From an uncultured bacterium (GTDB lineage Bacteria > Patescibacteriota > Minisyncoccia > Phycocordibacterales > GWA1-40-21), in the NCBI GenBank assembly GCA_963798465.1, contig CAWCTC010000001.1, positions 464,465-528,464 on the forward strand: a stretch of DNA of 64,000 nucleotides. The letters are read 5' to 3'. Below the pieces are notes generated by a model. The model was not told the DNA's origin. It saw only the letters and a program-made list of their open reading frames with translations, and did no database searches. This document shows, one piece after another, positions 1 to 55,926 of this stretch. Each line of letters starts with the position of its first letter. Position 1 is the first letter of the stretch. Both the position numbers and the translations under genes were made by a program.

Positions 1-43
1 ATATCAAACGCAAAGTAAGACATATTATTACCAAAAAAATCAA

Positions 44-343
44 ATGACCGAACGAACCAATCTTTTTTATATGGCAAATCTTGGAAGTGAATTTATGCGT
101 GTGTTTTCTGCATATGAAAAAAAAGATATGACAGCAGTTCACACTGCATCCGTACGTGCACTTGCAATTACTGAGACACTACTCAAAAACAAGAAGTCAG
201 ATGCTGAAGAAAAAGAGATTAAGATATTGAAAGAAATACTCTCTAATTTCCAAAATAATGAACCGCTTGTCTCAATACGAAAAAGTGATATTGAAACTTA
301 TTTTCAACCTTTTGCACTAAGAATGATGTCGTTTCCTGGCTAG
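44..343 (+). CDS. hypothetical protein (99 aa)
   Basis: Intact ORF in the supplied track. I recognise no motif. Confidence 0.4.
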   Translation: MTERTNLFYMANLGSEFMRVFSAYEKKDMTAVHTASVRALAITETLLKNKKSDAEEKEIKILKEILSNFQNNEPLVSIRKSDIETYFQPFALRMMSFPG

Positions 344-369
344 AGGAAGTTAGAATTTGTTTGAAATAA

Positions 370-946
370 AAAAAACCCCACCAAAAGAAAATAGGCAGGA
401 GGAAAATTGGTCCGATTAATTTACACATACAATATGGAGACAGATTTCATATTATCGGCAAAAATGGAACAGGGAAGACAACTTTGTTGAAAATGTTAAT
501 TGGTGAATTGAAAAACGATTCCGGAGTTATTGAAAGTGGAGAAAATATAAAAATCGGATATATTTCTCAGGAAAGATGGTTTAATAGGCCGAATAAAAAA
601 GTAATTGATGAATTTTTGAAAAACAACAAAGATATCTGAATCGAACGCGAGAAGATTATTAAATAGATTTAGAATTACAACTGAAGATGTCAAAAAGCAT
701 CTTTCATTAATTAGTCCTGGGGAATATTCTAGATTTGTAATTGCCGAGCTTGCTGCAATAAAGTCGAATTGCATTATTCTTGATGAGCCGACGAATCATC
801 TTGATTTGGAAGTTATTGAGGAATTGGAAAATGGGCTAAAAGATTATAATGGAACGCTTATCGTGGTCAGTCATGATAGATATTTTGTGGAAAAATTGAA
901 ATTAAAACAAGTCTTTGATCTTAATGTTAATTCATTCAAATTATAA
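370..946 (+). pseudogene. ABC-F type ATPase remnant (single nucleotide-binding domain, frameshifted, no start codon)
   Basis: Manual translation. Frame 1 reads LHIQYGDRFHIIGKNGTGKTTLLKMLIGEL (Walker A) and stops at TGA 637-639. Frame 2 continues SESNARRLLNRF...LSLISPGEYSRF...CIILDEPTNHLD...LIVVSHDRYF to TAA 944-946. The N-terminal half of a normal ABC-F protein is absent. Confidence 0.75.
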
Positions 947-970
947 TAAATATACTTGCTTTATTTAAAA

Positions 971-1003
971 AAGACAGTATCCATAAGGACACTGTCTTTT
1001 TTA
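971..1003 (+). terminator. intrinsic terminator after the ABC-F remnant
   Basis: Stem AAGACAGT / ACTGTCTT (8 bp) followed by a T-run. Confidence 0.65.
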
Positions 1004-1025
1004 TTTACTTCCACCTCGTCTCCGT

Positions 1026-1142
1026 AACGGCACCTGAGATGCTCTCAATTACCATCGCGGTTCTTATTCCAGGTGCCATCAAATTTTCGTCCCAGAAAAA
1101 ACCTTATTTATACGCGTCTCGTGCTCGGCACGACTTGGCTCC
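1026..1142. repeat. 117-bp direct repeat, copy A (partner at 5859-5975)
   Basis: Hand alignment shows the last 87 nt identical to copy C and 4 mismatches in the first 30 nt. It contains the hairpin GGCACC...GGTGCC and the hairpin TCGTGC-CGA-GCACGA. It ends in TGGCTCC, the reverse complement of the tRNA-Asn 3' end GGAGCCA. Confidence 0.9.
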
Positions 1143-1431
1143 CGCAGTCGAGACGGAACCAAAGTCTGCCATACCCCGCAAGGTGATTTTTGACTATTTT
1201 ATGGTCTTATATCGACGCAACCTGAGAGCTTAGAAGTTGGACAAACTTGGACACAGAATGACTATAATTTGACGTTCTTCTTATCTTTTCTGTGTAAAAC
1301 CCAAGGATGCTCATATTTAAGATAATATATTTTTTCTAACTCAGATGTCGAGCAGGCAAAATGGACTTTCATAATGTTTGCAGCATACCATAGTAGTTAT
1401 CCACAGTAAGCAATATTGTGTGAATATGTAT

Positions 1432-1450
1432 GTGTGTATACAATACACAC
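1432..1450. promoter_or_regulatory. inverted repeat GTGTGTAT-aca-ATACACAC upstream of the radical SAM gene (possible operator)
   Basis: Perfect 8-bp arms about 80 nt upstream of ATG 1532. Function not established. Confidence 0.3.
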
Positions 1451-1531
1451 TAGATAAAAGATTAGTAAAAAATTCTTTTAAAAAAGTTCGTTCAAAATTA
1501 TGGAGAAAACCATTAAAAACGGAGGTGTAAT

Positions 1532-2557
1532 ATGAGTATTCCCAAAATAGCATGGCTTACTGTTAATCGCGCATGTCAAATGCGTTGCGGTTGGTGTTAT
1601 GCCGGCTCAACCGGTTACAAAACCGACTGCGACATGAGCTTGGAATTGGCAAAAAAGCTGGCCACTCTCGTTAAAAACGCTGGCGTTAAAACTATCGTAA
1701 TTATTGGAGGTGAACCAACACTTTGGAAACACCTTTTTGAATTTAACGATTTTTGTCGCAAATTGAAAATCAAGACTGGATTAGTTTCAAATTGTCAAAG
1801 ATTTTCTTCGTTAAAATTCTTCGAGGAGTACCAACAACATCCGAGTGACTACATTTCGGCTTCATTGAAAGCTTTTGATCAAAATAGCAGTATTTTGGTC
1901 AGTGATTTCAGGGATTTTGAGAGTGTTAAACTCGGCGTTCGAAGAATCTGTAGTTACCAAAAAACTCAAATTAGTTTGGTTTACAATTCTTCGATTAAAG
2001 GCCAATTAACCGATATGGTTAAAGTTGCTGTTGATCTAGGGTCATCATTTACGCGTATCGGAACTTGTAAACCCATTTCCGTTAACGGAAAATTTGTTTC
2101 GACACACTGTATTGATCATGTCTCAGTGATCGACGAAGTACTAAAACAGCATGCTGAACTCGACAGGATAACAAATGGAAAAATCCGTTTTATTACGAAT
2201 ATTCCATTCTGCGTCTGGCCGAGAGATTTTGTTAAAATGTTGTTGAGCAAAAAGCAAATTGGTGTTGGTGGTTGTCAATTTCAGGGACGGGCGGGTGTGG
2301 TATTTGATGTTGATGGGACAGTGATTCTATGTAATTCAATGTTTGATTGTTCAGTCGGAAAGTTTGAAAAAGACTTTTCCGATACTGAAGGTCTAACAAA
2401 ACTATTAAATTCCGAAAAAGTGAATTACATCTATCAAAAAATCAACCAATATCCGTCTGAGAAATGTATTGATTGTACAATGTGGAATTTCTGCCGTGGT
2501 TGCTGTCCAATTATGTGGACGGTCTATAAACCGACAGAAATAATTCGTGGTTGGTAA
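1532..2557 (+). CDS. radical SAM enzyme with C-terminal SPASM-type domain (putative peptide maturase)
   Basis: N-terminal CQMRCGWC (CxxxCxxC). C-terminal CQFQGRAGVVFDVDGTVILC (Cx13Gx4C) and CIDCTMWNFCRGCC (Cx2Cx5Cx3C-like). SD ggaggtg lies 5 nt upstream of the ATG. Confidence 0.85.
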   Translation: MSIPKIAWLTVNRACQMRCGWCYAGSTGYKTDCDMSLELAKKLATLVKNAGVKTIVIIGGEPTLWKHLFEFNDFCRKLKIKTGLVSNCQRFSSLKFFEEYQQHPSDYISASLKAFDQNSSILVSDFRDFESVKLGVRRICSYQKTQISLVYNSSIKGQLTDMVKVAVDLGSSFTRIGTCKPISVNGKFVSTHCIDHVSVIDEVLKQHAELDRITNGKIRFITNIPFCVWPRDFVKMLLSKKQIGVGGCQFQGRAGVVFDVDGTVILCNSMFDCSVGKFEKDFSDTEGLTKLLNSEKVNYIYQKINQYPSEKCIDCTMWNFCRGCCPIMWTVYKPTEIIRGW

Positions 2558-2577
2558 AACCACAAAGGAGGTGTGCC

Positions 2578-2715
2578 ATGGATAAGTTCATAGAGCAGTT
2601 CCAGCTAAGCGGAATTCCGTCACGTGAATTGCCTGATCAAATCTGCGATAATTGTGCTGACAATTGTACAGCAGATTGCGGTGGTCCGGTAGACGGCTGC
2701 AGCTGGGGTTATTAG
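2578..2715 (+). CDS. 45-aa Cys-rich peptide, candidate RiPP precursor (not in ORF track)
   Basis: Manual translation gives MDKFIEQFQLSGIPSRELPDQICDNCADNCTADCGGPVDGCSWGY*. A strong SD aaaggaggtg (2563-2572) precedes the ATG. The ORF starts 21 nt after the radical SAM stop and is followed by a 17-bp-stem terminator. Confidence 0.7.
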   Translation: MDKFIEQFQLSGIPSRELPDQICDNCADNCTADCGGPVDGCSWGY

Positions 2716-2733
2716 CGGTAGCTAATCGTACTA

Positions 2734-2775
2734 AAAGTGCTACTGTATACCTAGTATACAGTAGCACTTTTTATT
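2734..2775 (+). terminator. intrinsic terminator closing the radical SAM plus peptide unit
   Basis: AAAGTGCTACTGTATAC / GTATACAGTAGCACTTT perfect 17-bp stem followed by TTTT. Confidence 0.85.
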
Positions 2776-2794
2776 AATATTTATTTTAAAAACG

Positions 2795-3460
2795 ATGCAA
2801 TTAAAAATTATTTATTCTTTTGAAAATGATTTGAAAAGAATTCTCGATACAATTAGAGAGATTGATTGGTTTAAAGAAAAAGGTTATAGAGTAGAATTTC
2901 CACCGGAGATAGACATGGCTAAAATAAAGGAATATTCCGAGCAGGACGTGTCATTTATATTAAAAAATAAATGGAGCGATGAAGAGTATAAAAAACATGA
3001 AATTCTAATTCTTGAAGAATGGAAGAAATACTCAAAGAGATTAGAAAAAGATTTAAATACTGCCGGCTTAAAACCGGCCAAAGAATACATTGTTTTTTTG
3101 ACTAGATATGGCGTCGGTGGCAGTTATGACTCACAAAGTAATAGTGTAATTTTGAATGTTTCTTATTATGAACGCAATACAAATCGTTCATTAATCGCGG
3201 CGCTTTTACATGAAATTGTACATATTAATATTTCAAGTTATATAGAACAGAATCAAATCTCTCATGGACAAAAAGAAAAAATCGTGGATATGATAATGAA
3301 GAAATCTTTTGCTGATGATTTTCCACAAGAAGTTTTTTTGCAAAAATGGCTATATACCAAAAGCCTTTCTGAAAAATCAGAATCAATTTTTAATGAGTTT
3401 TATCCTAACATAAGGTTAATAATTCAAAAACTGGGAGTATCAGGGTCGACCGCCATTTAA
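2795..3460 (+). CDS. hypothetical protein with HExxH motif (putative zinc metallopeptidase)
   Basis: Contains ALLHEIVHINIS (HEIVH). No signal peptide or TM segment is evident. No family assignment possible by eye. Confidence 0.45.
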   Translation: MQLKIIYSFENDLKRILDTIREIDWFKEKGYRVEFPPEIDMAKIKEYSEQDVSFILKNKWSDEEYKKHEILILEEWKKYSKRLEKDLNTAGLKPAKEYIVFLTRYGVGGSYDSQSNSVILNVSYYERNTNRSLIAALLHEIVHINISSYIEQNQISHGQKEKIVDMIMKKSFADDFPQEVFLQKWLYTKSLSEKSESIFNEFYPNIRLIIQKLGVSGSTAI

Positions 3461-3694
3461 TCTAATATGTTAGGCCTTTTCTCCACGAAATAAAATCATC
3501 CTTGTCATATTTTAAATACTACTATAAATTGAGCCAAATATAATTAATATAAACTCATGATTACACTTTCGATTTCTTACTAAATGGGTACCTATACTAA
3601 ATAGCACTTTCGAACCACTAAAGTACGGCTCTATTAAAGAATAAGAGAGCACTTTCATGCTCTCTAATCCTATCTTGCTCCGTCTCTAGGAACC

Positions 3695-3740
3695 GAACGG
3701 CACCTGAGAGGCTCTCAAATACCGTTAGGTTCGATTCCAG
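3695..3740. repeat. partial third copy (B) of the 5' module of the 117-bp repeat
   Basis: GAACGGCACCTGAGAGGCTCTCAAATACCGT differs from copy C at one position. It then continues tAGGTTCGATTCCAG against cgcGGTTCTTATTCCAG in copies A and C. Confidence 0.8.
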
Positions 3741-3790
3741 TTATAAGTATTTGTTTCTGGTTAAATTATTTTAAAAAAGCAGAGGATAAA

Positions 3791-5824
3791 TTAAATCCTT
3801 AAACCCAATTCATTAGCAAAAAATGACAACATAAGCGCTTGTCCTTCAACTATTTTTGCAATAGGCTTTCCAGCACCGTGTCCGGCATCCATTTCAGTAA
3901 AGATAAGTACTTTATTTTCTTTATTTACAGATTGCAGCAGTGCTGTCATTTTCCTGGAATGAAGTGGATTAACTCTAGTATCTTTTTCAGCTGTTGTAAA
4001 AAGAAAATTCGGATATTCAATTCCTTGCACAACATTATGATACGGGCTCCACTTTAAAATATTTTCTAAATCTTTTTTTACTTCTGGATTTCCGTATTCA
4101 TGAACCCAACGAATAGCCATGCCGAATTTTGGAAATCTCACCATATCAGTAAGGGGAACGCGGGAACAAACAGCTTTAAATAAATCTGGACGTTGTACAG
4201 CGACTGCAGAAACAAGAAGTCCTCCGTTACTTCCTCCTAATATACCTAAATGATTTTTATTTGTATATTTTTTAGAAATTAAATATTCTGCTGCTGCGAT
4301 AAAATCATCAAAACAGTTTTGTTTATGTTCCATAATTCCATCCTTATGCCATTTGTCCCCAAATTCACCACCTCCGCGAATATTTGCTATTGCAAAAATA
4401 CAGTTTCTTTCCATCCAAGGTATCCAACCTCTTGAAAAAGAGGGGATTTCATTATTTCCGAAACCCCCATACCCATATAGGATAGTTGGATTATTTCCGT
4501 TTAGTTGCACATCTTTCTTATGATAGATAAACATCGGTACTTTTGTTCCATCTTTTGATATGCACCATTCCTGCTTTACAATATAATCATCCGGGTTTAT
4601 AGGATTATCAGTTTTTCTGTATAGTGAATATTCTTTTGTGTTTGGATCAAAGTGATAAAGAACTTTTGGAAAAGTAAAAGAAGTAACTCCATAAAAAAAT
4701 TCGTCTTCTTCTCTTCGTGAACTTAAACCGGCAAGGCTTGAATATTTTGGAAGAGGTATTGTTCCAATTTCTTTGCCAAAGCAATCAAAGATAATAACTT
4801 CGGAACAGGCATTTGTTAAATATTCAACAATAATTTTATCTTTTGTCAGGTGAGTTGATTGAATTGCTGAATTTCTTTCCGGAATAAGTTCTTCCCATTC
4901 ATCAATCGGTTTGTACAGGTCATCAAATGTTGTATAGAGAAACCTTCCATTATTTGCTTTGTAATTCGTATTAATAATAACTTTATCGCTAATAAACATA
5001 GGTGAAAATTCTGCCTTCATACCAACAATAAAAGGCTTTGTTTCTTTTGTTGTTGTGTTATACATGTATATATTGTTTTCAGTCCATGTTTGTCTTACGC
5101 TGATTGCCAGATATCTGCCATCAATGGAAGAGACAAGGCCGAACATGTCATCTTTTGGTCTTCCTTTACCAAAAATAAGTTCATCATTATCTGAATTATC
5201 TCCAAGTTTATGGAAATATACTTTCGAATGCAAATGTTCCTCGTTTTTTGGAACCGTTCCTGGTCGAGGATTCCTCGTATAGAAAAAACCTGTATCGTTT
5301 GGTAGCCAGCGAATAGATGCATATCTGCAATGAATTATTTTGTCATCCAAATTCTTATTTGTGTCAGTATCTATTACATATAAAGTTGCCATTTCATTAC
5401 CGCCTTCTGAAAGACCATATGCAATATACTTGCCCGAATGAGAATTATTCCAATAATCTAAAGTAATAGTATTGTTTTCTTTTAAACCGTTTGGATTCAC
5501 CAATTCAACTGGGACTCCGTTTAATCCTTTTTTCATATATAGAACGGCTTGATCTTGATTCGGTTGTCTTTCAGTATAAAAATAGCGACCATGTACTGGA
5601 ACTGGGTTTGAGAAAACGACCGCTTTAAAATTTTTAATAAGTTCAGCTGAAAATGTTTTAAAGATATCATTTTTCAAAACAGAGTCAGTATATTCATTTT
5701 GATTTTTTATCCAGTTCTTAACTTCAGGATCGTCTGCATTTTCTAACCAGCGATATGGATCAGATATTTTTATCCCTTGTATTTCATCTACGATATCTTC
5801 TTTTTTTGTTTTAGGAATATTCAT
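3791..5824 (-). CDS. prolyl oligopeptidase family serine peptidase (S9A)
   Basis: 677 aa. N-terminal DPYRWLEN, nucleophile elbow GGSNGGLL, C-terminal DTRV...GHGAGK. Typical POP beta-propeller plus hydrolase length. Confidence 0.9.
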   Translation of the reverse strand: MNIPKTKKEDIVDEIQGIKISDPYRWLENADDPEVKNWIKNQNEYTDSVLKNDIFKTFSAELIKNFKAVVFSNPVPVHGRYFYTERQPNQDQAVLYMKKGLNGVPVELVNPNGLKENNTITLDYWNNSHSGKYIAYGLSEGGNEMATLYVIDTDTNKNLDDKIIHCRYASIRWLPNDTGFFYTRNPRPGTVPKNEEHLHSKVYFHKLGDNSDNDELIFGKGRPKDDMFGLVSSIDGRYLAISVRQTWTENNIYMYNTTTKETKPFIVGMKAEFSPMFISDKVIINTNYKANNGRFLYTTFDDLYKPIDEWEELIPERNSAIQSTHLTKDKIIVEYLTNACSEVIIFDCFGKEIGTIPLPKYSSLAGLSSRREEDEFFYGVTSFTFPKVLYHFDPNTKEYSLYRKTDNPINPDDYIVKQEWCISKDGTKVPMFIYHKKDVQLNGNNPTILYGYGGFGNNEIPSFSRGWIPWMERNCIFAIANIRGGGEFGDKWHKDGIMEHKQNCFDDFIAAAEYLISKKYTNKNHLGILGGSNGGLLVSAVAVQRPDLFKAVCSRVPLTDMVRFPKFGMAIRWVHEYGNPEVKKDLENILKWSPYHNVVQGIEYPNFLFTTAEKDTRVNPLHSRKMTALLQSVNKENKVLIFTEMDAGHGAGKPIAKIVEGQALMLSFFANELGLRI

Positions 5825-5858
5825 ATTTTATTTAGTTTCTTAATAGAGACAAAAATCG

Positions 5859-5975
5859 AACGGCGCCTGAGAGGCTCTCAAATACCGTCGCGGTTCTTAT
5901 TCCAGGTGCCATCAAATTTTCGTCCCAGAAAAAACCTTATTTATACGCGTCTCGTGCTCGGCACGACTTGGCTCC
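5859..5975. repeat. 117-bp direct repeat, copy C (overlaps the last 7 nt of tRNA-Asn)
   Basis: See copy A. On the minus strand it lies directly downstream of tRNA-Asn and 35 nt upstream of the POP start codon. Confidence 0.9.
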
Positions 5976-6043
5976 GGAGACAGGGATCGAACCTGTGACC
6001 AATCGCTTAACAGGCGATTGCTCTACCGCTGAGCTACTCCGGA
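5969..6043 (-). tRNA. tRNA-Asn (GTT), CCA encoded
   Basis: Reverse complement is TCCGGAGTAGCTCAGCGGTAGAGCAATCGCCTGTTAAGCGATTGGTCACAGGTTCGATCCCTGTCTCCGGAGCCA. Cloverleaf with anticodon loop CTGTTAA and T-loop GGTTCGATCC. Confidence 0.95.
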
Positions 6044-6058
6044 ATATTTGAAACAAAT

Positions 6059-6188
6059 TCCGGAGTGTTGGCTCAGCGGAACCGCTGGTCACGAGTATTT
6101 TTCTGCTGAAAAATCTCGCGACCCCGATTCGCGCCGTCGCGCTCCGTCTTTGAAATGCTGCACGTATTCGCATTTCAACTACTCCGGA
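6059..6188. ncRNA. unassigned structured element (about 130 nt, four hairpins closed by TCCGGAGT/ACTCCGGA)
   Basis: Hairpins seen: CAGCG-GAAC-CGCTG; ATTTTTC-TGCT-GAAAAAT extended by CACGAG/CTCGCG; CGCGAC...GTCGCG; TTGAAATGC-11 nt-GCATTTCAA. The strand cannot be decided from the sequence. Confidence 0.4.
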
Positions 6189-6214
6189 ATACATGGCATA
6201 ATAGCAAATAAAAA

Positions 6215-6478
6215 TTGAAAAGTGAAGCTTTTTTAAAATATTGCTATAATCATTGCGTGTATATAAAGGTCAAAGTCAAAACAAATGCAAAAAAAGAAAA
6301 GATTGTTAAAAAATCTGAGGATCATTTTGATATCTCTGTAAAAGAGCCGGCAGAAAGAAATTTGGCAAATAAAAAAGTTTTGGAGCTAGTGCGAACTTAT
6401 TTTAAAGTGTATAATGGGAAGGTCAGAATAGTGAGTGGACATCATTCACCAAGTAAAATTATAAGCTTAGATAAATAG
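6215..6478 (+). CDS. DUF167 (YggU-like) family protein
   Basis: VYIKVKVKTNAKKEKIV...ISVKEPAERNLANKKVLELV...VRIVSGHHSPSKII matches the DUF167 pattern. The true start may be the in-frame GTG at 6257. Confidence 0.6.
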   Translation: MKSEAFLKYCYNHCVYIKVKVKTNAKKEKIVKKSEDHFDISVKEPAERNLANKKVLELVRTYFKVYNGKVRIVSGHHSPSKIISLDK

Positions 6479-6486
6479 ATAAAAAA

Positions 6487-6849
6487 ATGCGTCACAATGT
6501 CAAAACCACGGATTTCTCAATGACTCCGGCAATCAGCGATTATGTTGAAAAAAGAATTGCTCATCTGGATAAATTTGTCAGCCCGGAACACAAAGATCTT
6601 CCGATTTGTTATGTTGAAATAGGTAAAACTACCAACCATCATAAAAATGGGGAATTATTTAGAGCAGAGTTTACAGTTTTTATAGGTGACAAATCTATGA
6701 GAGCCGAATCCGAACAAGAAGATTTATATGCAGCTCTCGATTTAGTAACTGATGAAATGTCTGAAGAATTAAGATCTTTCAAAGATAAAAAGACCAGCGT
6801 AAATAAAAAAGAAGGAGCAAAAGTAAAGTCCATAATAAAAGAATTATAA
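6487..6849 (+). CDS. hpf: ribosome hibernation promoting factor (HPF/RaiA family)
   Basis: 120 aa. MTPAISDYVEKRIAHLDKF...AEFTVFIGDKSMRAESEQEDLYAALDLVTDEM is the typical S30AE pattern. Confidence 0.85.
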   Translation: MRHNVKTTDFSMTPAISDYVEKRIAHLDKFVSPEHKDLPICYVEIGKTTNHHKNGELFRAEFTVFIGDKSMRAESEQEDLYAALDLVTDEMSEELRSFKDKKTSVNKKEGAKVKSIIKEL

Positions 6850-6859
6850 AATAATAAAA

Positions 6860-6896
6860 TTAATGGGCGGCCACGAAGTGGCCGCCCATTAATTTT
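6860..6896. terminator. bidirectional terminator between convergent hpf and fmt
   Basis: TTAATGGGCGGCCAC-gaa-GTGGCCGCCCATTAA, a 15-bp perfect stem flanked by A/T runs. Confidence 0.85.
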
Positions 6897-6897
6897 A

Positions 6898-7755
6898 TTA
6901 TTTTAATCCTCTCAAAAAATCCGCATAGCTCATTTCTTTTTTGCCTTCAGGAATTACATTTTGAATTTCTAGCATATTGTCTTTCCAAACCGCTTTTTTG
7001 ATAATTACTCTCATTTTTTGTCCATTTTTATTAACCTCAAAATAAGTTTTTGGCCATTCTTCAAAAGCCAAAATTTTTAAATAATTTTTAAAGGCATCTT
7101 TTGATAAATCAAGAAATCCATCTGTTTTTTCAGTTTTTTTCGTAAATGTCGCTTCGCTGTCATCTTGTACTTTTACTTTTATTTTGCCCTTAATCCAATC
7201 CGGCAATATTTCCGCCAAAAGATCTGCACCTTCTTTAGCCAAAATTTCTTGAAGATTTAAAAAACCAACTGGCCAAGCTGAGTTTTCAAGTTTCTTCTGT
7301 GCGACAATTGCGCCATGATCGACTTGCTCGTCTACAAGCATGATTGAAACTCCAATTTCTTTTTCATTATTTAATATTTGTTCTTGAAGTGGGGAAGGTC
7401 CTCGATATTTTGGCAGGAGCGAAGGATGAATATTCAAAACGTTGTATTTTGGAATATCAATCACAATTTTTGGAATTATTTTTCCATAAGATGCGACGAT
7501 AAAAAGATTGTAGTCTTTAATTTTATTCAAAAAGGTTTCATCTTTGAGTTTTTCAGGTTCCACGCATCCAATTCCATTTTCTTCAGCCCAAATTTTTGTT
7601 GGTGTTGGTGTCAGAACCATTTTTCTTCCTTGCGGTTTGTCTGGAGTAGTAACAATAAGCTCAGGAACAATTCCATTTTTCTTGAGCTCTTTTAAAACGA
7701 TCAGTGAAAATTCTGACGTTCCGAAAAAAGCAATTTTTATATCTTTATTGAACAT
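6898..7755 (-). CDS. fmt: methionyl-tRNA formyltransferase
   Basis: IAFFGTSEFS..., NIHPSLLPKYRGPSPLQ, 285 aa. Confidence 0.9.
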   Translation of the reverse strand: MFNKDIKIAFFGTSEFSLIVLKELKKNGIVPELIVTTPDKPQGRKMVLTPTPTKIWAEENGIGCVEPEKLKDETFLNKIKDYNLFIVASYGKIIPKIVIDIPKYNVLNIHPSLLPKYRGPSPLQEQILNNEKEIGVSIMLVDEQVDHGAIVAQKKLENSAWPVGFLNLQEILAKEGADLLAEILPDWIKGKIKVKVQDDSEATFTKKTEKTDGFLDLSKDAFKNYLKILAFEEWPKTYFEVNKNGQKMRVIIKKAVWKDNMLEIQNVIPEGKKEMSYADFLRGLK

Positions 7756-7868
7756 ATTGTTAGTATATATTATTTTTTAAAAATTCCCACAAGGGGATAC
7801 AGGAAAATATAGTCGGTATCACTTCTTATTTTAAAATAAAAAAACGCCCAGCATACAGCAAGGCGTTT

Positions 7869-8141
7869 TTATTTTTTCTTCATTTTGGCTACATAATAAA
7901 CTTCAGCCAGATCTTCAGTTTTACCAATTTCTTCAAATTGGACCCTTATTACTTTATAGCCTTTGTTGATTAAATCTACGTAATTTTTCTTATGTTCGGG
8001 ATCAGTAATTATTTCAAAACGATACCATTTTTCAATATCATTTAAATCTGTCCGCGAATCATAAAGAATTCTTATGAACATTTTCAAATGATATTTTAAT
8101 TCTGCTTTGCCGAACTCATCATTGACTATGCTCATAAGCAT
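7869..8141 (-). CDS. hypothetical protein (90 aa)
   Basis: Intact ORF with its own hairpin terminator (ACGCC...GGCGT at about 7843-7867). Confidence 0.45.
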   Translation of the reverse strand: MLMSIVNDEFGKAELKYHLKMFIRILYDSRTDLNDIEKWYRFEIITDPEHKKNYVDLINKGYKVIRVQFEEIGKTEDLAEVYYVAKMKKK

Positions 8142-8231
8142 CCTCCTTGTTTATATAGATTTTTTATCTTCCATTTATATACTAGGACATAAAATTAAAC
8201 TTGTCAATACATATAAAAATTAAATTTTTAT

Positions 8232-8266
8232 AAATAAAAAACGCCCTGCAACAAATGCAGGGCGTC
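8232..8266 (-). terminator. intrinsic terminator of ORF 8313-8684
   Basis: ACGCCCTGCA-acaaa-TGCAGGGCGT, a 10-bp stem followed by a T-run on the minus strand. Confidence 0.8.
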
Positions 8267-8312
8267 CTATAAAATTCTATACATTATCAATTTCTCCTTC
8301 TTATTTTTTTAT

Positions 8313-8684
8313 CTAGTTCCTTGACCTGTAGAAAAAATCACAGATTGTTCCATGAAGCATAACATCTTTATCGGAAACGAATTTGTTCGTATCAGGAGCC
8401 ATATTTCTCATGGATTCAGAAATATTTGCACCTGCTTTTTTACTAAAACTCTCCAAATCGCCTACGTTTTTGAAGCTCAACTTTTTGTTAGCAATCCAGT
8501 AAAACTTTCCGCCAAACGATTTTAATTGTTTTTTGGTTATTTCCGTAAAAATTAAAATCGTTTCCTCAACTATTAATATAGGGTTGGGATTTTCTGAAAA
8601 GAGATCAACGTTTTTCCACAATGCTTCTTCCCAAATCTCAGATCTGAGATTTGCTCCAGAAAGAGAAAATGTTGGTATTTTCAT
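8313..8684 (-). CDS. hypothetical protein (123 aa)
   Basis: Intact ORF. No recognisable motif. Confidence 0.45.
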   Translation of the reverse strand: MKIPTFSLSGANLRSEIWEEALWKNVDLFSENPNPILIVEETILIFTEITKKQLKSFGGKFYWIANKKLSFKNVGDLESFSKKAGANISESMRNMAPDTNKFVSDKDVMLHGTICDFFYRSRN

Positions 8685-8760
8685 TTTTAGAGACCTCCTC
8701 CCTATAATTTTTGAAAACGTACGTCTGCGATAATTATAAAACTAATCGATTAAATAGCAA

Positions 8761-9312
8761 CTACAGATTTTCCAGCAATTCTGCATATTCTTCAGGAGTA
8801 ATTTCTTGGATATTAACAGCTTTATCGATAAAAAGTATTCCATTCAAATGGTCGATTTCATGCTGGACTACTTGCGCCAATATTCCGGAAAAACCTCTTG
8901 AAAATTTCTTTCCATTTTCATCTGTTGCTTCCATCGTGACTTTTTCGGGTCTGGAAACTTTTCCATAAACATATCTGACGGAAAGACATCCTTCTTCGAG
9001 CAATTGCCTGGCTTTTGAAGATTTTAAAATTTTAGGATTTATGCAGACCAGATCTTTTATTTTGGTATTTTCATTTCTGTCGTCGCTAAATACTTTTTTT
9101 GAAATAACAAAAAGTCTTATCGGCTTTCCGATCTGAACCGCAGAAATTGCCGCAGCATCTTTTTGAGAATCTATAGCTCCTTTGAGATTTGAAATTATTT
9201 TTTTTATTCCAATGCTATTTATTTTGTCTTCGGAGACAACAGAAGAAATTTCCCTCAGAATAGGGTTGTTTTTTTGCAGAATATTGATTTTTACGGATTT
9301 TTTCGGAGTCAT
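8761..9312 (-). CDS. def: peptide deformylase
   Basis: Motifs AVQIGKPIRLFVI, EEGCLSV, QHEIDHLNG. The start was chosen at the internal Met (MTPKKSV). The track ORF extends to 9357 through junk-like AT-rich codons. Confidence 0.88.
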   Translation of the reverse strand: MTPKKSVKINILQKNNPILREISSVVSEDKINSIGIKKIISNLKGAIDSQKDAAAISAVQIGKPIRLFVISKKVFSDDRNENTKIKDLVCINPKILKSSKARQLLEEGCLSVRYVYGKVSRPEKVTMEATDENGKKFSRGFSGILAQVVQHEIDHLNGILFIDKAVNIQEITPEEYAELLENL

Positions 9313-9379
9313 TGGACATATAATAACATTATTATATAAATTGGTCAAAAAATACAAATAATGCTAGTATCAAAAACAC

Positions 9380-10363
9380 ATGAATAATTTTTGGCAGAAA
9401 ATTTCGAAGAAAGGCGTTTTCTTCTGTTTGGCACCGATGTCTGATGTTACTGACATCGCTTTCAGGCAGATAATCGCAAAATACAGCAGACATGGAAAAC
9501 TTGGCGGAGGTCCTGGCGTTTTTTTTACCGAGTTTGTTTCTGCAGACGGTCTTGCATCAAAAGAAGGCAGACCAAAACTCTTGCCGATTTTGAAATTTTC
9601 CAAAAACGAAAAACCAATAATCGCGCAGATATTCGGTGCCAAACCGGAAAATATAAAAATCGCCTGCCAAATAATTTCCAAAATGGGTTTTGATGGAATT
9701 GATATCAATATGGGATGTCCTGATAAATCTGTCGTGAAGCAATGTGCTGGATCAGCTCTCATAAGAACGCCGGCTTTGGCTCAAGAAATAATTCGCGCAG
9801 CAAAAGCTGGAGCGCCAAAACTTCCGATTTCCGTTAAAACAAGAATCGGCTTTAATGTAATTGAATATAAAAAATGGCTACCGAAAATTCTCGCAGAAAA
9901 TATTTCTGCGCTTACAGTTCATCTTCGCACAAGAAAAGAAATGTCGAACGTTCCAGCTCACTTCGAACTTGCAAAAGATATTGTAAAAATTGTCCGTAAA
10001 TATGATAAAAAAGTTGTGCTCATTGCAAACGGCGATATTGAAAATCTGGAACAGGGAAGAAAGCTCGCAAAAGACGCCGGCTTTGATGGGATAATGATCG
10101 GCAGAGGAATTTTTGGAAATCCTTGGTTTTTTGATTCTAAAATTAAGTATGAAAATATTTCAACTGAAGAAAAACTTAAAGCACTTATTGAACACATAAA
10201 ACTTTTTGAAAAATTAATGAGTCATAGAAACGAAGCAAATATGAAAAAGCATTTTAAAGCTTACGTGAATGGTTTTGAAGGTGCAAAAGAACTCAGAGTA
10301 AAGCTTATGGGTGTGGAAAGTTTGAAAGGAGCGGAGACGATAATCAAATCTTATTTGAAATAA
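9380..10363 (+). CDS. dus: tRNA-dihydrouridine synthase (Dus family)
   Basis: LAPMSDVTDIAFRQI, GFDGIDINMGCP, HLRTRKEMS, GIMIGRG. Confidence 0.88.
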   Translation: MNNFWQKISKKGVFFCLAPMSDVTDIAFRQIIAKYSRHGKLGGGPGVFFTEFVSADGLASKEGRPKLLPILKFSKNEKPIIAQIFGAKPENIKIACQIISKMGFDGIDINMGCPDKSVVKQCAGSALIRTPALAQEIIRAAKAGAPKLPISVKTRIGFNVIEYKKWLPKILAENISALTVHLRTRKEMSNVPAHFELAKDIVKIVRKYDKKVVLIANGDIENLEQGRKLAKDAGFDGIMIGRGIFGNPWFFDSKIKYENISTEEKLKALIEHIKLFEKLMSHRNEANMKKHFKAYVNGFEGAKELRVKLMGVESLKGAETIIKSYLK

Positions 10364-24121: not shown

Positions 24122-24137
24122 TTTTCAAAAAATAAAA

Positions 24138-24244
24138 CTTGTTCCGTGTGAAATTCACCATAACACAAAATTTAGAGTAATAAACATAGAATCAATTAAT
24201 AAAAATTAGTCGAAATTATCAAAACATTAAAATTTCTTTACAGG
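24138..24244 (+). repeat. 107-nt leader repeat, copy 1 (ends at the ATG of the ABC-2 permease)
   Basis: CTTGTTCCGTGTGAAATTCA...ATCAATTAATAAAAATTAGTCGAAATTATCAAAACATTAAAATTTCTTTACAGG|ATG. Alignable end to end with copies at 27958 and 54441. Confidence 0.9.
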
Positions 24245-24991
24245 ATGACAACAATTTACATACTTTGGCTTAGACAAATGAAAAGATACTTCAGATCAAA
24301 ATCAAGAATGATTGGATCTCTTGCCCAACCCTTGCTATTCATGGTTGCTTTGGGTTTCGGACTCGGACCGGTTTTTGCAAAAGCAGGTGAAGGAAATTAC
24401 ATTAATTTTTTAGTTCCCGGAATCATCGGCATGAGCATAATTTTTTCCGCAGTATTTTCCGGAATAGAAATTATCTGGGACAAACAGTTCGGCTTTTTGA
24501 AAGAAACTCTTGTCGCGCCGGTTTCTCGTTTCAATATAATGCTCGGAAGGACACTCGGCGGAGCAACACAGTCCGTCATGCAAGGTTCTATTGTTTTTGT
24601 CATTTCACTTTTTATCGGTTTTCGCCCAACAAACTGGTATCTCATTCCTATATTTATTTTGCTTATGCTTCTCGTTGCTTTGCTTTTCACCGCAGTCGGA
24701 ACAATGATTGCTTCGCTTCTCGATGATATGCAAGGCTTCCAGCTCATCGTGAACTTCATGGTCATGCCATTATTTTTCCTATCTGGTGCAATTTTCCCTC
24801 TAACCGGTGTGTCAAAAGTATTGAGTTCAATCGCAGCTTTTGATCCGCTCGCATACGGAATCGACTCTTTCAGAGCCGTGCTTATAAATACAACAACATT
24901 CAGTTTGCATGTTGATGTAATAGTTTTATCAATAACAACTCTATTTTTCCTGTCGCTTGGAAGTTATTTCTTTACAAAAATACAGATTTAA
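24245..24991 (+). CDS. ABC-2 type transporter permease
   Basis: Six TM segments. Typical ABC-2 length, adjacent to its ATPase. Confidence 0.85.
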   Translation: MTTIYILWLRQMKRYFRSKSRMIGSLAQPLLFMVALGFGLGPVFAKAGEGNYINFLVPGIIGMSIIFSAVFSGIEIIWDKQFGFLKETLVAPVSRFNIMLGRTLGGATQSVMQGSIVFVISLFIGFRPTNWYLIPIFILLMLLVALLFTAVGTMIASLLDDMQGFQLIVNFMVMPLFFLSGAIFPLTGVSKVLSSIAAFDPLAYGIDSFRAVLINTTTFSLHVDVIVLSITTLFFLSLGSYFFTKIQI

Positions 24992-27940: not shown

Positions 27941-27957
27941 ACGTATAGACCATTGTA

Positions 27958-28064
27958 CTTGTCCCGTGTGAAATTCAGCGCAGTATAAAATTCAGAAAAA
28001 TAAGCATAAAATCAATTAATAAAAATTAATCGACATTATCAAAACATTAAAATTTCTTTACGGG
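27958..28064 (+). repeat. 107-nt leader repeat, copy 2 (ends at ATG 28065)
   Basis: CTTGTCCCGTGTGAAATTCAGCGCAG...ATCAAAACATTAAAATTTCTTTACGGG|ATG. Confidence 0.9.
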
Positions 28065-28466
28065 ATGAAAAACGAAAATCAATTATTCAGCATGATAGAA
28101 CCTAGTGGAAATCTAAAAAGTTCTATTATGGAGAAAATCAGAAAAGAGGAAATAAAAAAAGCCACATATGAAGTGGTTCTCAGTTCTGCTGCATCTTTGG
28201 TTTCCATATCGGCCGCAATTTTTTTTGTAATCAGCATAGTCAGAGATGCATATCAATCCGGGCTTTCTGAATATCTTTCTCTTATATTCTCAGATGGCGC
28301 ATCGTTGATATCTTATTGGCAATCATATATCATGTCTATCATAGAATCGCTGCCAATACTTCAAATTACGATTTTTTTCGCTTCAATCTGGGTTTTTGCA
28401 TGGTCTCTAAATAAAGCGATGACAATATTTAAAAATACGAGAGCAATTTTTTATAAGGTAAATTAA
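28065..28466 (+). CDS. membrane protein, putative anti-sigma factor
   Basis: Assigned from its position downstream of the ECF sigma gene and its TM segments. No diagnostic motif. Confidence 0.35.
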   Translation: MKNENQLFSMIEPSGNLKSSIMEKIRKEEIKKATYEVVLSSAASLVSISAAIFFVISIVRDAYQSGLSEYLSLIFSDGASLISYWQSYIMSIIESLPILQITIFFASIWVFAWSLNKAMTIFKNTRAIFYKVN

Positions 28467-54279: not shown

Positions 54280-54440
54280 AACTAGCCAATTTTGTAAGGA
54301 AAAACCCCACTTTTTCTGCACTTTTATATAAAAGTATCGATTTTTGTAGTGGCAAAAATCATCCACAACTTAAACACAGATTGTTCTATCTTCCTAGATT
54401 GCGGATATTCAAAATGCCGTGATAAAATTGTCTTTGTTAA

Positions 54441-54546
54441 CTTGTCCCGTGTGAAATTCAACACTGTACAAAATTTAGAGTAATAAATATAGAATCAATT
54501 AATCAAAACAGTCGAGTTTATCAAAACATTAAAATTTCTTTACGGG
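54441..54546 (+). repeat. 107-nt leader repeat, copy 3 (106 nt, ends at the ATG of dnaB)
   Basis: CTTGTCCCGTGTGAAATTCAACACTG...TATCAAAACATTAAAATTTCTTTACGGG|ATG. Confidence 0.9.
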
Positions 54547-55926
54547 ATGGCAACAGAAATCAGAAAAATAAATATAAGAATTCCTCCGCAAAATATTGAA
54601 TCGGAAAGAGCACTTTTGGGTTCCATAATGCTCCGTCCAGAAACTCTAGCTGAAATCATGGACATACTTCGCCCTGAAGCTTTTTATGCCGACAAGCATA
54701 AAACTATTTTTGAGGCGATGACTCATTTGTATGAAAGAAGAGAGCCAATAGACTTGCTGACTCTTTCTTCCAAACTGAAAGAATCCGTCGATCTGGATAG
54801 AATCGGCGGAATGAGTTATCTCACTGAAATGGTAAACTCGGTTCCCTCTTCCTCAAATGCAGAACATTATGCCGAAATAATTTCCAAAAAATATACCATG
54901 CGCAGACTTATAGAAGCTGCTGAAGGTATTGTAAAAATAGGTTATGATGAAGAAAGTCAAATTGAAGAACTTTTAGATAAAGCTGAGAAAAAACTTTATG
55001 AGGTGACAAGCAAAAATCTTTCTGGAAAATATGTAGAAATGAAAGATGTTTTGGGCGAGGCAATGGAAAGACTCGACAGACTTCACAAAACTAAAGGCGA
55101 ACTTCGCGGAGTGCCGACGGGTTTCAAAGATTTGGACAACAAGCTTTCCGGTTTCCAAAATTCAGATTTAATTATTTTGGCCGCTCGACCTTCCATGGGA
55201 AAAACTTCTCTAGCTTTGGATATCGCGAGAAATGCTTCAATCCGCCACAATATTCCGACTGCAATTTTTTCTCTTGAAATGAGCACTCAACAGCTCGTCG
55301 ACAGAATGCTTTCTGCCGAATCAAAAGTTGATGCATGGAGATTGAGAACAGGAAAACTTTCTTTGGAATCAGAATTCGAACAGATCAGAGCATCGCTTGA
55401 TCCACTTTCAAAAGCGCCTCTTTATATCGACGATCAGGCTGCAAATAATATTTTAAAAATCCGTTCAGTCGTCCGAAGATTGAAACACGAAAAAAATCTC
55501 GGATTGGTAATCATCGATTATTTGCAGCTTATGACACCAGTCAATACAAAAGGTGGAGACAATGTCGTCCAGCAAATTACGGAAATTTCCCACTCTTTAA
55601 AACAGCTTGCAAAAGAATTCGACATTCCAGTCCTCGCGCTTTCACAACTTTCAAGAGCTGTTGAACAGCGAGGCGGCAAGCCAAGACTTTCCGATTTGAG
55701 AGATTCAGGTTCCATCGAACAGGATGCAGATGTAGTGATTTTTATACACAGAGATGCAAACGACGAAGGCGGTGGTAAAAAACAAACGGCAGAAATAATG
55801 ATTGAAAAGCACAGAAACGGTCCGACGGGCAAAGTCGAATTATTCTTTGATGCCGACAAATCATCTTTCCTTTCCGTAGACAACTCGGCTCAATTCGGCG
55901 ATTTTAACCAGACAGGAACATTTTAG
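54547..55926 (+). CDS. dnaB: replicative DNA helicase
   Basis: PPQNIESERALLGS, ILAARPSMGKTSLAL, IDYLQLM, SQLSRAVEQR. Confidence 0.93.
   Translation: MATEIRKINIRIPPQNIESERALLGSIMLRPETLAEIMDILRPEAFYADKHKTIFEAMTHLYERREPIDLLTLSSKLKESVDLDRIGGMSYLTEMVNSVPSSSNAEHYAEIISKKYTMRRLIEAAEGIVKIGYDEESQIEELLDKAEKKLYEVTSKNLSGKYVEMKDVLGEAMERLDRLHKTKGELRGVPTGFKDLDNKLSGFQNSDLIILAARPSMGKTSLALDIARNASIRHNIPTAIFSLEMSTQQLVDRMLSAESKVDAWRLRTGKLSLESEFEQIRASLDPLSKAPLYIDDQAANNILKIRSVVRRLKHEKNLGLVIIDYLQLMTPVNTKGGDNVVQQITEISHSLKQLAKEFDIPVLALSQLSRAVEQRGGKPRLSDLRDSGSIEQDADVVIFIHRDANDEGGGKKQTAEIMIEKHRNGPTGKVELFFDADKSSFLSVDNSAQFGDFNQTGTF

Follow-up and report, generated by a model that had tools for sequence, protein, structure and literature searches.

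Precise insertion of a ~125-nt gene-less element at the 3′ end of tRNA-Asn in a patescibacterial genome

Genomes of the Candidate Phyla Radiation (CPR, Patescibacteria) are tiny, and the routes by which they gain and swap accessory genes are poorly understood. We analysed a 64,000-nucleotide (nt) stretch of DNA from an uncultured bacterium of the Patescibacteriota (assembly GCA_963798465.1, contig CAWCTC010000001.1, positions 464,465 to 528,464; hereafter the window), in which a tRNA-Asn(GTT) gene adjoins a block of genes bracketed by long direct repeats. The repeats are copies of a gene-less element of ~125 nt, built of two arms, a left end (LE) and a right end (RE). Comparison with relatives defines the element boundaries and a 6-bp duplication, GCTCCG, and reveals a precise, recurrent insertion site at tRNA-Asn in three clean states: empty, occupied by a solo element, or, in the window strain, carrying an array. 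The array contains an attachment-site junction of the attL type, and its region has no recombinase gene. As the best explanation we regard it as probable that integrase-less elements were repeatedly inserted at the tRNA-Asn end by site-specific recombination, and that decay and recombination between copies followed. The element is more alike between species than the genome around it, and the junction carries biosynthetic cargo: in the window a trio of genes resembling a cluster for a ribosomally synthesized and post-translationally modified peptide (RiPP), with a radical-SAM enzyme, and an S9 peptidase, and in another genome a gene for a hybrid polyketide synthase–non-ribosomal peptide synthetase (PKS-NRPS). 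The exact junction sequences given below can be used for finding excised circles, the missing recombinase and further cargo in metagenomes.

Insertion states of the tRNA-Asn site

The target gene lies on the minus strand and has an encoded CCA (ARAGORN); the Rfam tRNA model scores 71.7 bits over 5972-6043. TGGCTCC at 5969-5975 corresponds to GGA, the discriminator G and the CCA of this tRNA, and over these 7 nt the gene overlaps a repeat. A sequence-only reading of the window had recognised this acceptor end, which ARAGORN and Rfam confirm, as well as a pair of 117-bp direct repeats, which repeat search and alignment recover. The search returned one such family in the window (1026-1142 and 5859-5975; spacing 4833, 97% identity). 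All 4 mismatches between these outer copies, L and R, fall within the first 30 nt, at repeat offsets 7, 15, 24 and 29 (copy L/copy R: A/G at 1032/5865, T/G at 1040/5873, T/A at 1049/5882 and A/G at 1054/5887), the final 87 nt are without any mismatch, and weaker homology begins 5 nt earlier, at 1021/5854.

Two more copies were found (Table 1). A third, partial copy (M) within the block matches the 30-nt core at 3691-3725 with 0 mismatches, its homology spanning 3684-3740, and a fourth, diverged copy (Z) falls outside the window, ~400-500 bp before its first base (7499-7610 of L007, a sequence from the same strain). The 30-nt core pattern, with up to 3 mismatches allowed, gave 0 matches in 100 shuffles, and a 25-nt right-end pattern likewise gave 0 matches in shuffled sequence. 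Scans with these two patterns found no further copies elsewhere in the 64-kb window. All four copies share one orientation and lie inside 7 kb adjoining tRNA-Asn.

Table 1. Coordinates of the element copies, their junctions, the intervening gene modules and the target gene in the window.
Feature	Position	Strand	Description and basis
Copy L of the element	1018-1142	+	LE from ~1018, with a 7-nt deletion at the start; RE core 1112-1142, ending TGGCTCC; 97% identical to copy R, 88% to the L002 solo copy
Putative junction remnant after RE of copy L	1143-1165	+	CGCAG plus a GGAACC-containing stretch; BLAST reaches 1160 at 84-88%
Module A	1400-3472	+	Radical-SAM/SPASM enzyme 1532-2557, 45-aa Cys-rich peptide 2578-2715, 221-aa SprT-like protein 2795-3460; Pfam
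Apparent displaced native tRNA-Asn 3′ trailer	3609-3683	-	Terminator-like hairpin 3665-3644 (minus strand); CCA-less tRNA end TGCTCC 3677-3682
Duplicated core GCTCCG, left copy	3678-3683	-	Junction identical to the left junction of the L002 solo copy
Copy M, LE arm only	3684-3740	+	Canonical start TCTCTAGGAACCGAACGG; diverges after ~57 nt; 0 mismatches to the 30-nt core
Module B, S9 prolyl oligopeptidase, 677 aa	3791-5824	-	Pfam Peptidase_S9_N 5e-85, Peptidase_S9 1e-54
Copy R of the element	5854-5975	+	LE from 5854, first ~12 nt non-canonical; RE core 5945-5975; supplies the CCA of tRNA-Asn
tRNA-Asn(GTT), target gene	5969-6043	-	ARAGORN, Rfam; 97-100% identical in all relatives
Duplicated core GCTCCG, right copy	5971-5976	.	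In tRNA sense CGGA, discriminator G and first C of CCA; comparison of empty (L001, L027), solo (L002) and window sites

Contigs of the same species are 94-97% identical to the window at the nucleotide level, and on many of them the HPF protein gene near the tRNA (window 6487-6849) has an identical product. Judging by the names that NCBI gives to proteins of relatives, the group belongs with Paceibacteria-like CPR bacteria. The site is empty in L001, L003-5 and L027, where it reads ...AACTGCTCC/GGAGACAGG... (the slash marks the junction; in L001 and L027 it is given as ...AACTGCTCC/GGAGAC...) and the tRNA is without an encoded CCA. A solo element occupies it in L002 (= L014), L015, L025 and L026, and L016 begins within the element. 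The solo junctions read ...AACTGCTCCG/TCTCTAGG...125 nt...CTTGGCTCCG/GAGAC... (L002, L015, L025, L026), the layout being the empty-site flank, GCTCCG, an insert of ~125 nt, GCTCCG and the tRNA. The array state, with four copies, is listed for the window strain alone.

The comparison of empty and solo sites therefore shows that the entire ~125 nt is inserted DNA and that the duplication is limited to GCTCCG. This overturns the sequence-only view of the repeat as a duplicated tRNA 3′ end with its flank. TGGCTCC at 1136-1142, taken there for an orphan tRNA fragment, is in fact the terminus of the element, and it is TGCTCC at 3677-3682 that appears to be the displaced end of the tRNA. The strain-specific region also exceeds the stretch enclosed by the outer repeats: it runs from -997 to 5970 in window numbering (6968 nt) and stands in place of 683 nt of L001.

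Judged by these comparisons, the 3′ end of tRNA-Asn is an insertion hotspot. The left neighbour of the gene varies among the species groups sampled and its right side is conserved.

Other DNA was also observed at this position. L017 (GCA_036171775.1) carries an island on the same side of tRNA-Asn, at 1-9660. Its genes include those for a large serine recombinase, a reverse transcriptase, an Eco57I-like enzyme and a ResIII helicase, and LE and RE are absent from it. In another species, an unrelated gene-less insert of ~165 nt sits at the tRNA-Asn 3′ end (L028 6319-6484, L031 160-354) and is flanked by a 16-nt direct repeat, GCTCCGGAGACAGGGA, itself a tRNA-end repeat. Contigs from many metagenome samples (L009, L012, L013, L016, L018-L023, L046) end at most ~250 nt from tRNA-Asn, which points to strain-level heterogeneity of the locus.

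Arms, copies and relatives of the element

An alignment of all copies divides the element into an LE of ~85 nt and an RE of 31-50 nt ending in TGGCTCC. LE has the canonical start TCTCTAGGAACCGAACGG and contains a long imperfect hairpin, which pairs better on the tRNA-sense strand; RE has a conserved 31-nt core, ACGCGTCTCGTGCTCGGCACGACTTGGCTCC, with a short hairpin. A candidate compensatory change in the hairpin of copy Z was discarded, because the altered positions fall in a 3-nt loop. On the minus strand the hairpin of copy M reaches z = -4.2. Whole-element folds were no better than shuffles (z between -0.6 and -1.3), and Rfam left the repeat unmatched on either strand.

These folds raise the question of whether the repeat is a functional RNA, derived from the tRNA-Asn transcript (a trailer-derived small RNA or a terminator) and duplicated together with neighbouring DNA. 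The G-U pairs that favour the tRNA-sense strand, the copy M value, the U run that follows copy R in tRNA sense and the stronger conservation of the element than of its flanks between species would all suit such an RNA. We nonetheless consider it very improbable, given the missing Rfam match and the modest whole-element z values. In addition, different copies have mismatches in the central part of the hairpin without compensatory pairs, the presence of the element varies among strains of one species, and no tRNA promoter is anywhere near copies L, M and Z.

RE adjoins tRNA-Asn also in L012, L023 and L024, and the DNA to the left of the 31-nt RE, as far as it was read from the tRNA side, is unrelated in each. 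In L024 (JBDRJU010000052.1, uncultured bacterium; RE and tRNA-Asn at 1336-1434), this place is taken by a hybrid PKS-NRPS gene that encodes more than 2093 aa. The gene lies on the minus strand (1658-7939) with the order KS-AT-MT-KR-ACP-C, and its best database relative is 39% identical. In L008, RE is followed by CGCAC and then by LE, as expected where two tandem elements meet. Compared with the copies of L008, the window copies reach 93-95% identity, against ~82% for the flanks of that species; compared with the solo copy in strains of their own species, they reach only 88%. Relationships among elements thus disagree with those among hosts, and the history of the element therefore differs from that of its hosts.

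Public collections were scanned for LE and RE with exact patterns, and all counts from these scans are among the matches listed. The LE core had 0 matches in 185,579 species-representative genomes (presumably including the L001 assembly) and one match in Joint Genome Institute (JGI) metagenomes. RE had 2 matches in genomes, L023 and L024, and viral contigs gave 0 for LE and 0 for RE. The solo copy was unmatched by BLAST against phages and plasmids. Neither the solo copy nor copy R has terminal inverted repeats, the sole pair being an internal one of 9 nt within LE.

We considered whether LE-RE is a non-autonomous transposable element, either a miniature inverted-repeat transposable element (MITE) or of the IS200/IS605 type, moved by a transposase in trans to GCTCC-like targets, with L, Z and R as independent insertions whose position around the genes would be coincidental. 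Such an element could account for the subterminal hairpin at each end, the precise insertion with a short duplicated or target-like sequence, the high L/R similarity, as after a recent burst, and the GCTCC-like, if inexact, cores in the left flanks of L and Z. Weighed against this, terminal inverted repeats are missing, and the copies, in a single orientation, all lie within 7 kb of one tRNA gene and nowhere else in 64 kb, in contrast to the many dispersed copies of a MITE. The LE core is as rare as the scans above indicate, RE bounds variable DNA in other genomes, and no transposase was found among window open reading frames (ORFs) of at least 180 aa, a cut-off that exceeds the length of TnpA (Y1). 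The features shared with the IS200/IS605 type (hairpins, no terminal inverted repeats, target GCTCC(G)) are equally compatible with the arms of an attachment (att) site, and we regard a transposable element as quite unlikely.

Copies L and R are each other's nearest relatives, with 97% identity between them versus 88% to the solo copy of same-species strains, which agrees with the recent event or gene conversion suggested by the sequence-only reading. The first 30 nt of copy R are nearest to copy M and L008 (29/30) and the remaining 87 nt equal copy L. Copy R thus looks chimeric, as would be expected after gene conversion or after a crossover close to where the LE hairpin begins at its base.

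In Logan sample ERR11594402, two unitigs are 100% identical to the window, L007 ending at 1084 and L006 corresponding to 1113-5917, and therefore the junction sequences are present in reads. Both unitigs break within the 87-nt identical stretch. They come from the same strain as the window, and hence give no independent confirmation of the two-copy arrangement; in them, a linear arrangement and a solo site plus a circle are indistinguishable. These breaks, and those of contigs at this place in many metagenomes, would be expected if the two copies were an assembly artefact, with the repeat wrongly resolved. However, the 4 differences and four distinct flanks are all found in the unitigs, which are an independent assembly of the sample, and standard reads of 150 nt are long enough to cross a repeat of 87 nt. 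We conclude that an artefact is extremely improbable.

The composite block and the origin of the array

Left of copy M lies a stretch of ~75 nt whose homologue in L011 immediately follows tRNA-Asn; the two agree at 16/16 positions in AATCCTATCTTGCTCC. By its sequence, the junction between the two is of the attL type, in which a displaced, CCA-less tRNA end and its trailer meet LE. The segment 3684-5975 reads as one insertion: it begins with LE(M), continues with the S9 peptidase gene and closes with both arms of copy R, and GCTCCG bounds it at 3678-3683 and 5971-5976. The internal LE copy and the attL-type junction therefore place the S9 peptidase in an insertion of its own and make the radical-SAM trio a separate module, so that the bracketed cassette is, by all appearances, a composite of two modules of different history.

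In the genomes compared here, module A is 83% identical at the nucleotide level over 1400-3472 to L033-L039 (the L008/L010 species) and ~70% identical to L040-43. In L033-L039 it is part of a larger RiPP-like cluster that is not near tRNA-Asn and has neither LE/RE nor an S9 gene. No S9 homologue stands next to the radical-SAM trio in any locus fetched. As the peptidase and the trio would thus have arrived separately, one shared pathway should not be assumed. In L033 (9487-15327; also in L034 and L035), the trio cluster adds two radical-SAM genes, small peptides and an M16 peptidase.

To the right of RE(L), the sequence at 1143-1165 resembles the RE-CGCAC-LE junction of L008 about as well as it resembles a tRNA T-arm. 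We read it as a degenerate junction remnant with no recognisable tRNA. A tRNA pseudogene right of 1142 was rejected, with no tRNA match at E<=10 and weak similarity over only ~18 nt. Directly left of copy L, at ~400-946, lies a degraded gene for an ABC-F-type ATPase (Walker A at ~470), split into short ORFs in different frames.

The sequence-only reading had interpreted the bracketed block as a Campbell-type insertion next to the tRNA. Spelled out, a single 4.8-kb circle with a 117-bp copy would have entered a resident copy, site-specifically or through RecA, and 1143-5858 would be one islet able to loop out. The copies are indeed direct and 97% identical, with 87 identical nt; copy R is chimeric, as a crossover around offset 30 would make it; the solo copies could have served as resident targets; and a circle together with a solo site would equally account for the unitig graph of ERR11594402. 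In contrast, the internal LE fused to the displaced tRNA trailer makes the block itself a product of earlier insertions, and the radical-SAM trio is found elsewhere without the repeats or the S9 gene. Composition, which had been proposed as a check, is ordinary and does not mark the block as foreign: the GC content of 1143-5858 is 0.345 versus 0.358, and its 4-mer distance is within the spread of the window (31/105 same-size windows are at least as deviant). Relatives do provide the empty sites that had been called for, but the left flank with the ABC-F pseudogene, followed by a single copy and the tRNA, was seen in none of them. We therefore consider a Campbell-type circle unlikely as the origin of the whole block, given the internal LE and the attL-type junction; the tRNA-adjacent hotspot stands, and such a circle could still have acted last, after earlier steps of repeated insertion. 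Loop-out of the block, which the 87 identical nt would allow by homologous recombination, remains a prediction.

Our preferred explanation, repeated site-specific insertion at the tRNA-Asn end, would work as follows. Insertion would take place precisely where the tRNA-Asn gene ends at its 3′ side and would duplicate the 6 bp GCTCCG. RE would then abut the tRNA and give it its encoded CCA, and LE would be joined to the displaced, CCA-less trailer. The other DNA found left of RE in some relatives could be cargo between LE and RE. Successive insertions at one tRNA end, together with decay and recombination between copies, would lead to the 7-kb array, whose order outward from the tRNA is R, the S9 peptidase, M with the old trailer, the radical-SAM/peptide/SprT-like trio, L, the ABC-F pseudogene with a 99-aa gene and a DUF5674 gene, and the diverged Z. 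Recent copying or gene conversion between copies would explain why L and R are almost identical and why R is chimeric, and homologous exchange between copies and lineages probably reshaped the array.

Pfam scans of all genes of the 7-kb region and of window ORFs of at least 180 aa (64 kb) detected no recombinase or transposase, in line with the absence of an integrase reported by the sequence-only reading. Because the insertion point is exact and recurs against different flanks, the core is 6 bp long, the copies cluster at one tRNA gene in a single orientation and one junction is of the attL type, we favour site-specific recombination at a tRNA att site with later loss of the recombination genes. 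The catalyst would then be a site-specific recombinase acting in trans from a gene elsewhere, with a tyrosine integrase as the likeliest candidate, and the array would have grown by tandem accretion of integrase-less elements of the kind known as cis-mobilizable elements (CIMEs). A directly joined RE-LE, as in an excised mini-element or an excised 3684-5975 unit, would read ...CACGACTTGGCTCCGTCTCTAGGAACCGAAC...

Several observations weigh against recurrent insertion as set out here. No autonomous relative (LE, integrase, RE) was found in the exact-pattern scans of genomes, metagenomes, viral contigs, phages and plasmids, and the excised, attP-form junction had 0 matches in viral contigs, the one collection in which it was sought. 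LE is itself rare in the collections (no species-representative genome, a single JGI match and no viral, phage or plasmid match). The arrangement of the arms is also irregular: textbook accretion would place a module from LE to RE, yet modules A and 1 are found between an RE and the LE that follows it, and after two modules comes a whole LE-RE unit instead of a lone RE. Copies L and Z have degenerate left cores (CCTCG and GATCCG), and clear inverted core-type binding sites flanking GCTCCG were not seen by eye. Finally, the trailer on the M side is of the L011 type, not of the same-species L001 type, and the region may therefore have entered the lineage by homologous replacement and not by insertion in place.

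A further, more speculative idea, which we think unlikely, is that LE-RE serves CPR bacteria as a miniature landing pad for one tRNA gene: a hairpin-bearing site of 125 bp would be copied to the tRNA-Asn 3′ end, where small modules would be collected and exchanged either through a recombinase acting in trans or because the element is a conserved homology anchor shared across species. If true, genomes otherwise poor in mobile elements would hold, anchored at a tRNA gene, a cassette array like that of an integron, with RiPP and PKS-NRPS genes among its cassettes.

Known systems and neighbouring features

The closest known counterparts of the locus are CIMEs and decayed islands integrated in tRNA genes (tDNA). 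A CIME has kept its att sites and lost its integrase, and the accretion model describes its behaviour (PMC5704250); the elements related to ICESt1/ICESt3 of Streptococcus thermophilus include CIMEs and accrete in tandem at tRNA-gene att sites (PMC5704250). Like CIMEs, the elements described here have attL/attR-like ends, LE and RE around GCTCCG, without integrase, other recombinase or transfer genes, and they lie at a tRNA 3′ end in tandem and in one orientation. The CIME model predicts capture and co-mobilisation of DNA between sites. Unlike for CIMEs, no parent integrative and conjugative element (ICE) or integrative and mobilizable element (IME) with the same ends is known for LE-RE, and the exact-pattern scans yielded no autonomous ICE, IME or prophage with shared att sites. 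Further differences are that the LE-RE unit goes down to ~125 bp without cargo, that its 6-bp core lies at the CCA junction, that its host is a CPR (Paceibacteria-like) bacterium, and that the order of its arms is unfit for simple accretion.

Islands integrated in tDNA can be recognised by the tDNA fragment they displace (the Islander principle; PMC4383910). The asparagine tDNA hotspots of Klebsiella are reported to carry islands for microcin E492 (PMC4891358). With tDNA islands and prophages, the locus has in common a recurrent tRNA-Asn target, empty sites in relatives and biosynthetic or bacteriocin-like cargo, and also an intact tRNA at one end (here 71.7 bits); at the other end there is a putative displaced tRNA-end fragment. 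It differs in that no integrase lies inside the island, that the identity block is 6 bp long versus the usual tens of bp in the T-arm or anticodon arm, and that the long repeat is element DNA outside the tRNA. The putative fragment is only 6-7 nt, TGCTCC(G) at 3677-3683 with the native trailer, TGGCTCC at 1136-1142 being the element terminus.

Dehalococcoides is reported to have genomic islands specific for ssrA that occur in tandem (PMC3146451). They resemble the present array as small cargo modules at the 3′ end of one small-RNA gene, separated by direct repeats and variable between strains, in a streamlined genome. The ssrA islands have their own integrases, and their repeat is the ssrA 3′ end itself.

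The array also resembles those of integrons in that its modules are short, with one to three genes each, and alternate with sites of 60-130 nt that form imperfect hairpins, and copy M ends in GTTAGGT, which fits the GTTRRRY core. In contrast to integrons, there is no IntI, attI or Pc promoter; Pfam scans of the 7-kb-region genes and of ORFs of at least 180 aa found no tyrosine recombinase in the window. The modules have their own orientation and signals, and the array is anchored at a tRNA gene. The R″/R′ boxes of attC (RYYYAAC/GTTRRRY) are lacking, as L, R, L002 and L008 have GTCGCGG or ATCGCGG instead, and the other copies are without an R box. An attC identity of the element was rejected, since the R′ box fits copy M only and no IntI is present. 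What is new here is a very small unit without cargo that targets a single tRNA gene, has its 6-bp core at the CCA junction, is shared across CPR species and in some cases neighbours biosynthetic genes.

On the other side of the target gene, between the tRNA-Asn 5′ end and a DUF167 gene, lies a 145-nt element (6046-6190) flanked by a 12-nt direct repeat, CTACTCCGGAAT (6034-6045 and 6179-6190). It folds into a cloverleaf-like structure (z = -5.4 on the plus and -6.8 on the minus strand), with compensatory changes in 7 of ~45 pairs across 4 diverged variants, and has no Rfam match. The element is present in most relatives, precisely absent from L002, L025 and L027 and reduced in L011, L023 and L028. 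Its start resembles the 5′ half of tRNA-Asn, and it includes GCTCCGTCT, a 9-mer shared with the LE left junction. It may be a structured RNA or another insertion remnant.

We also noted a short motif, GGAAGTTAGAAnTTG, that in this species closely follows several unrelated genes (window 340-362; L007 7080-7100 and 7617-7640; L001 9081-9105). Finally, the window contains a separate direct-repeat family of 115 nt, unrelated to the tRNA-Asn repeats, with three copies (24137-24251, 27957-28071 and 54440-54554; 86% and 66% identity).

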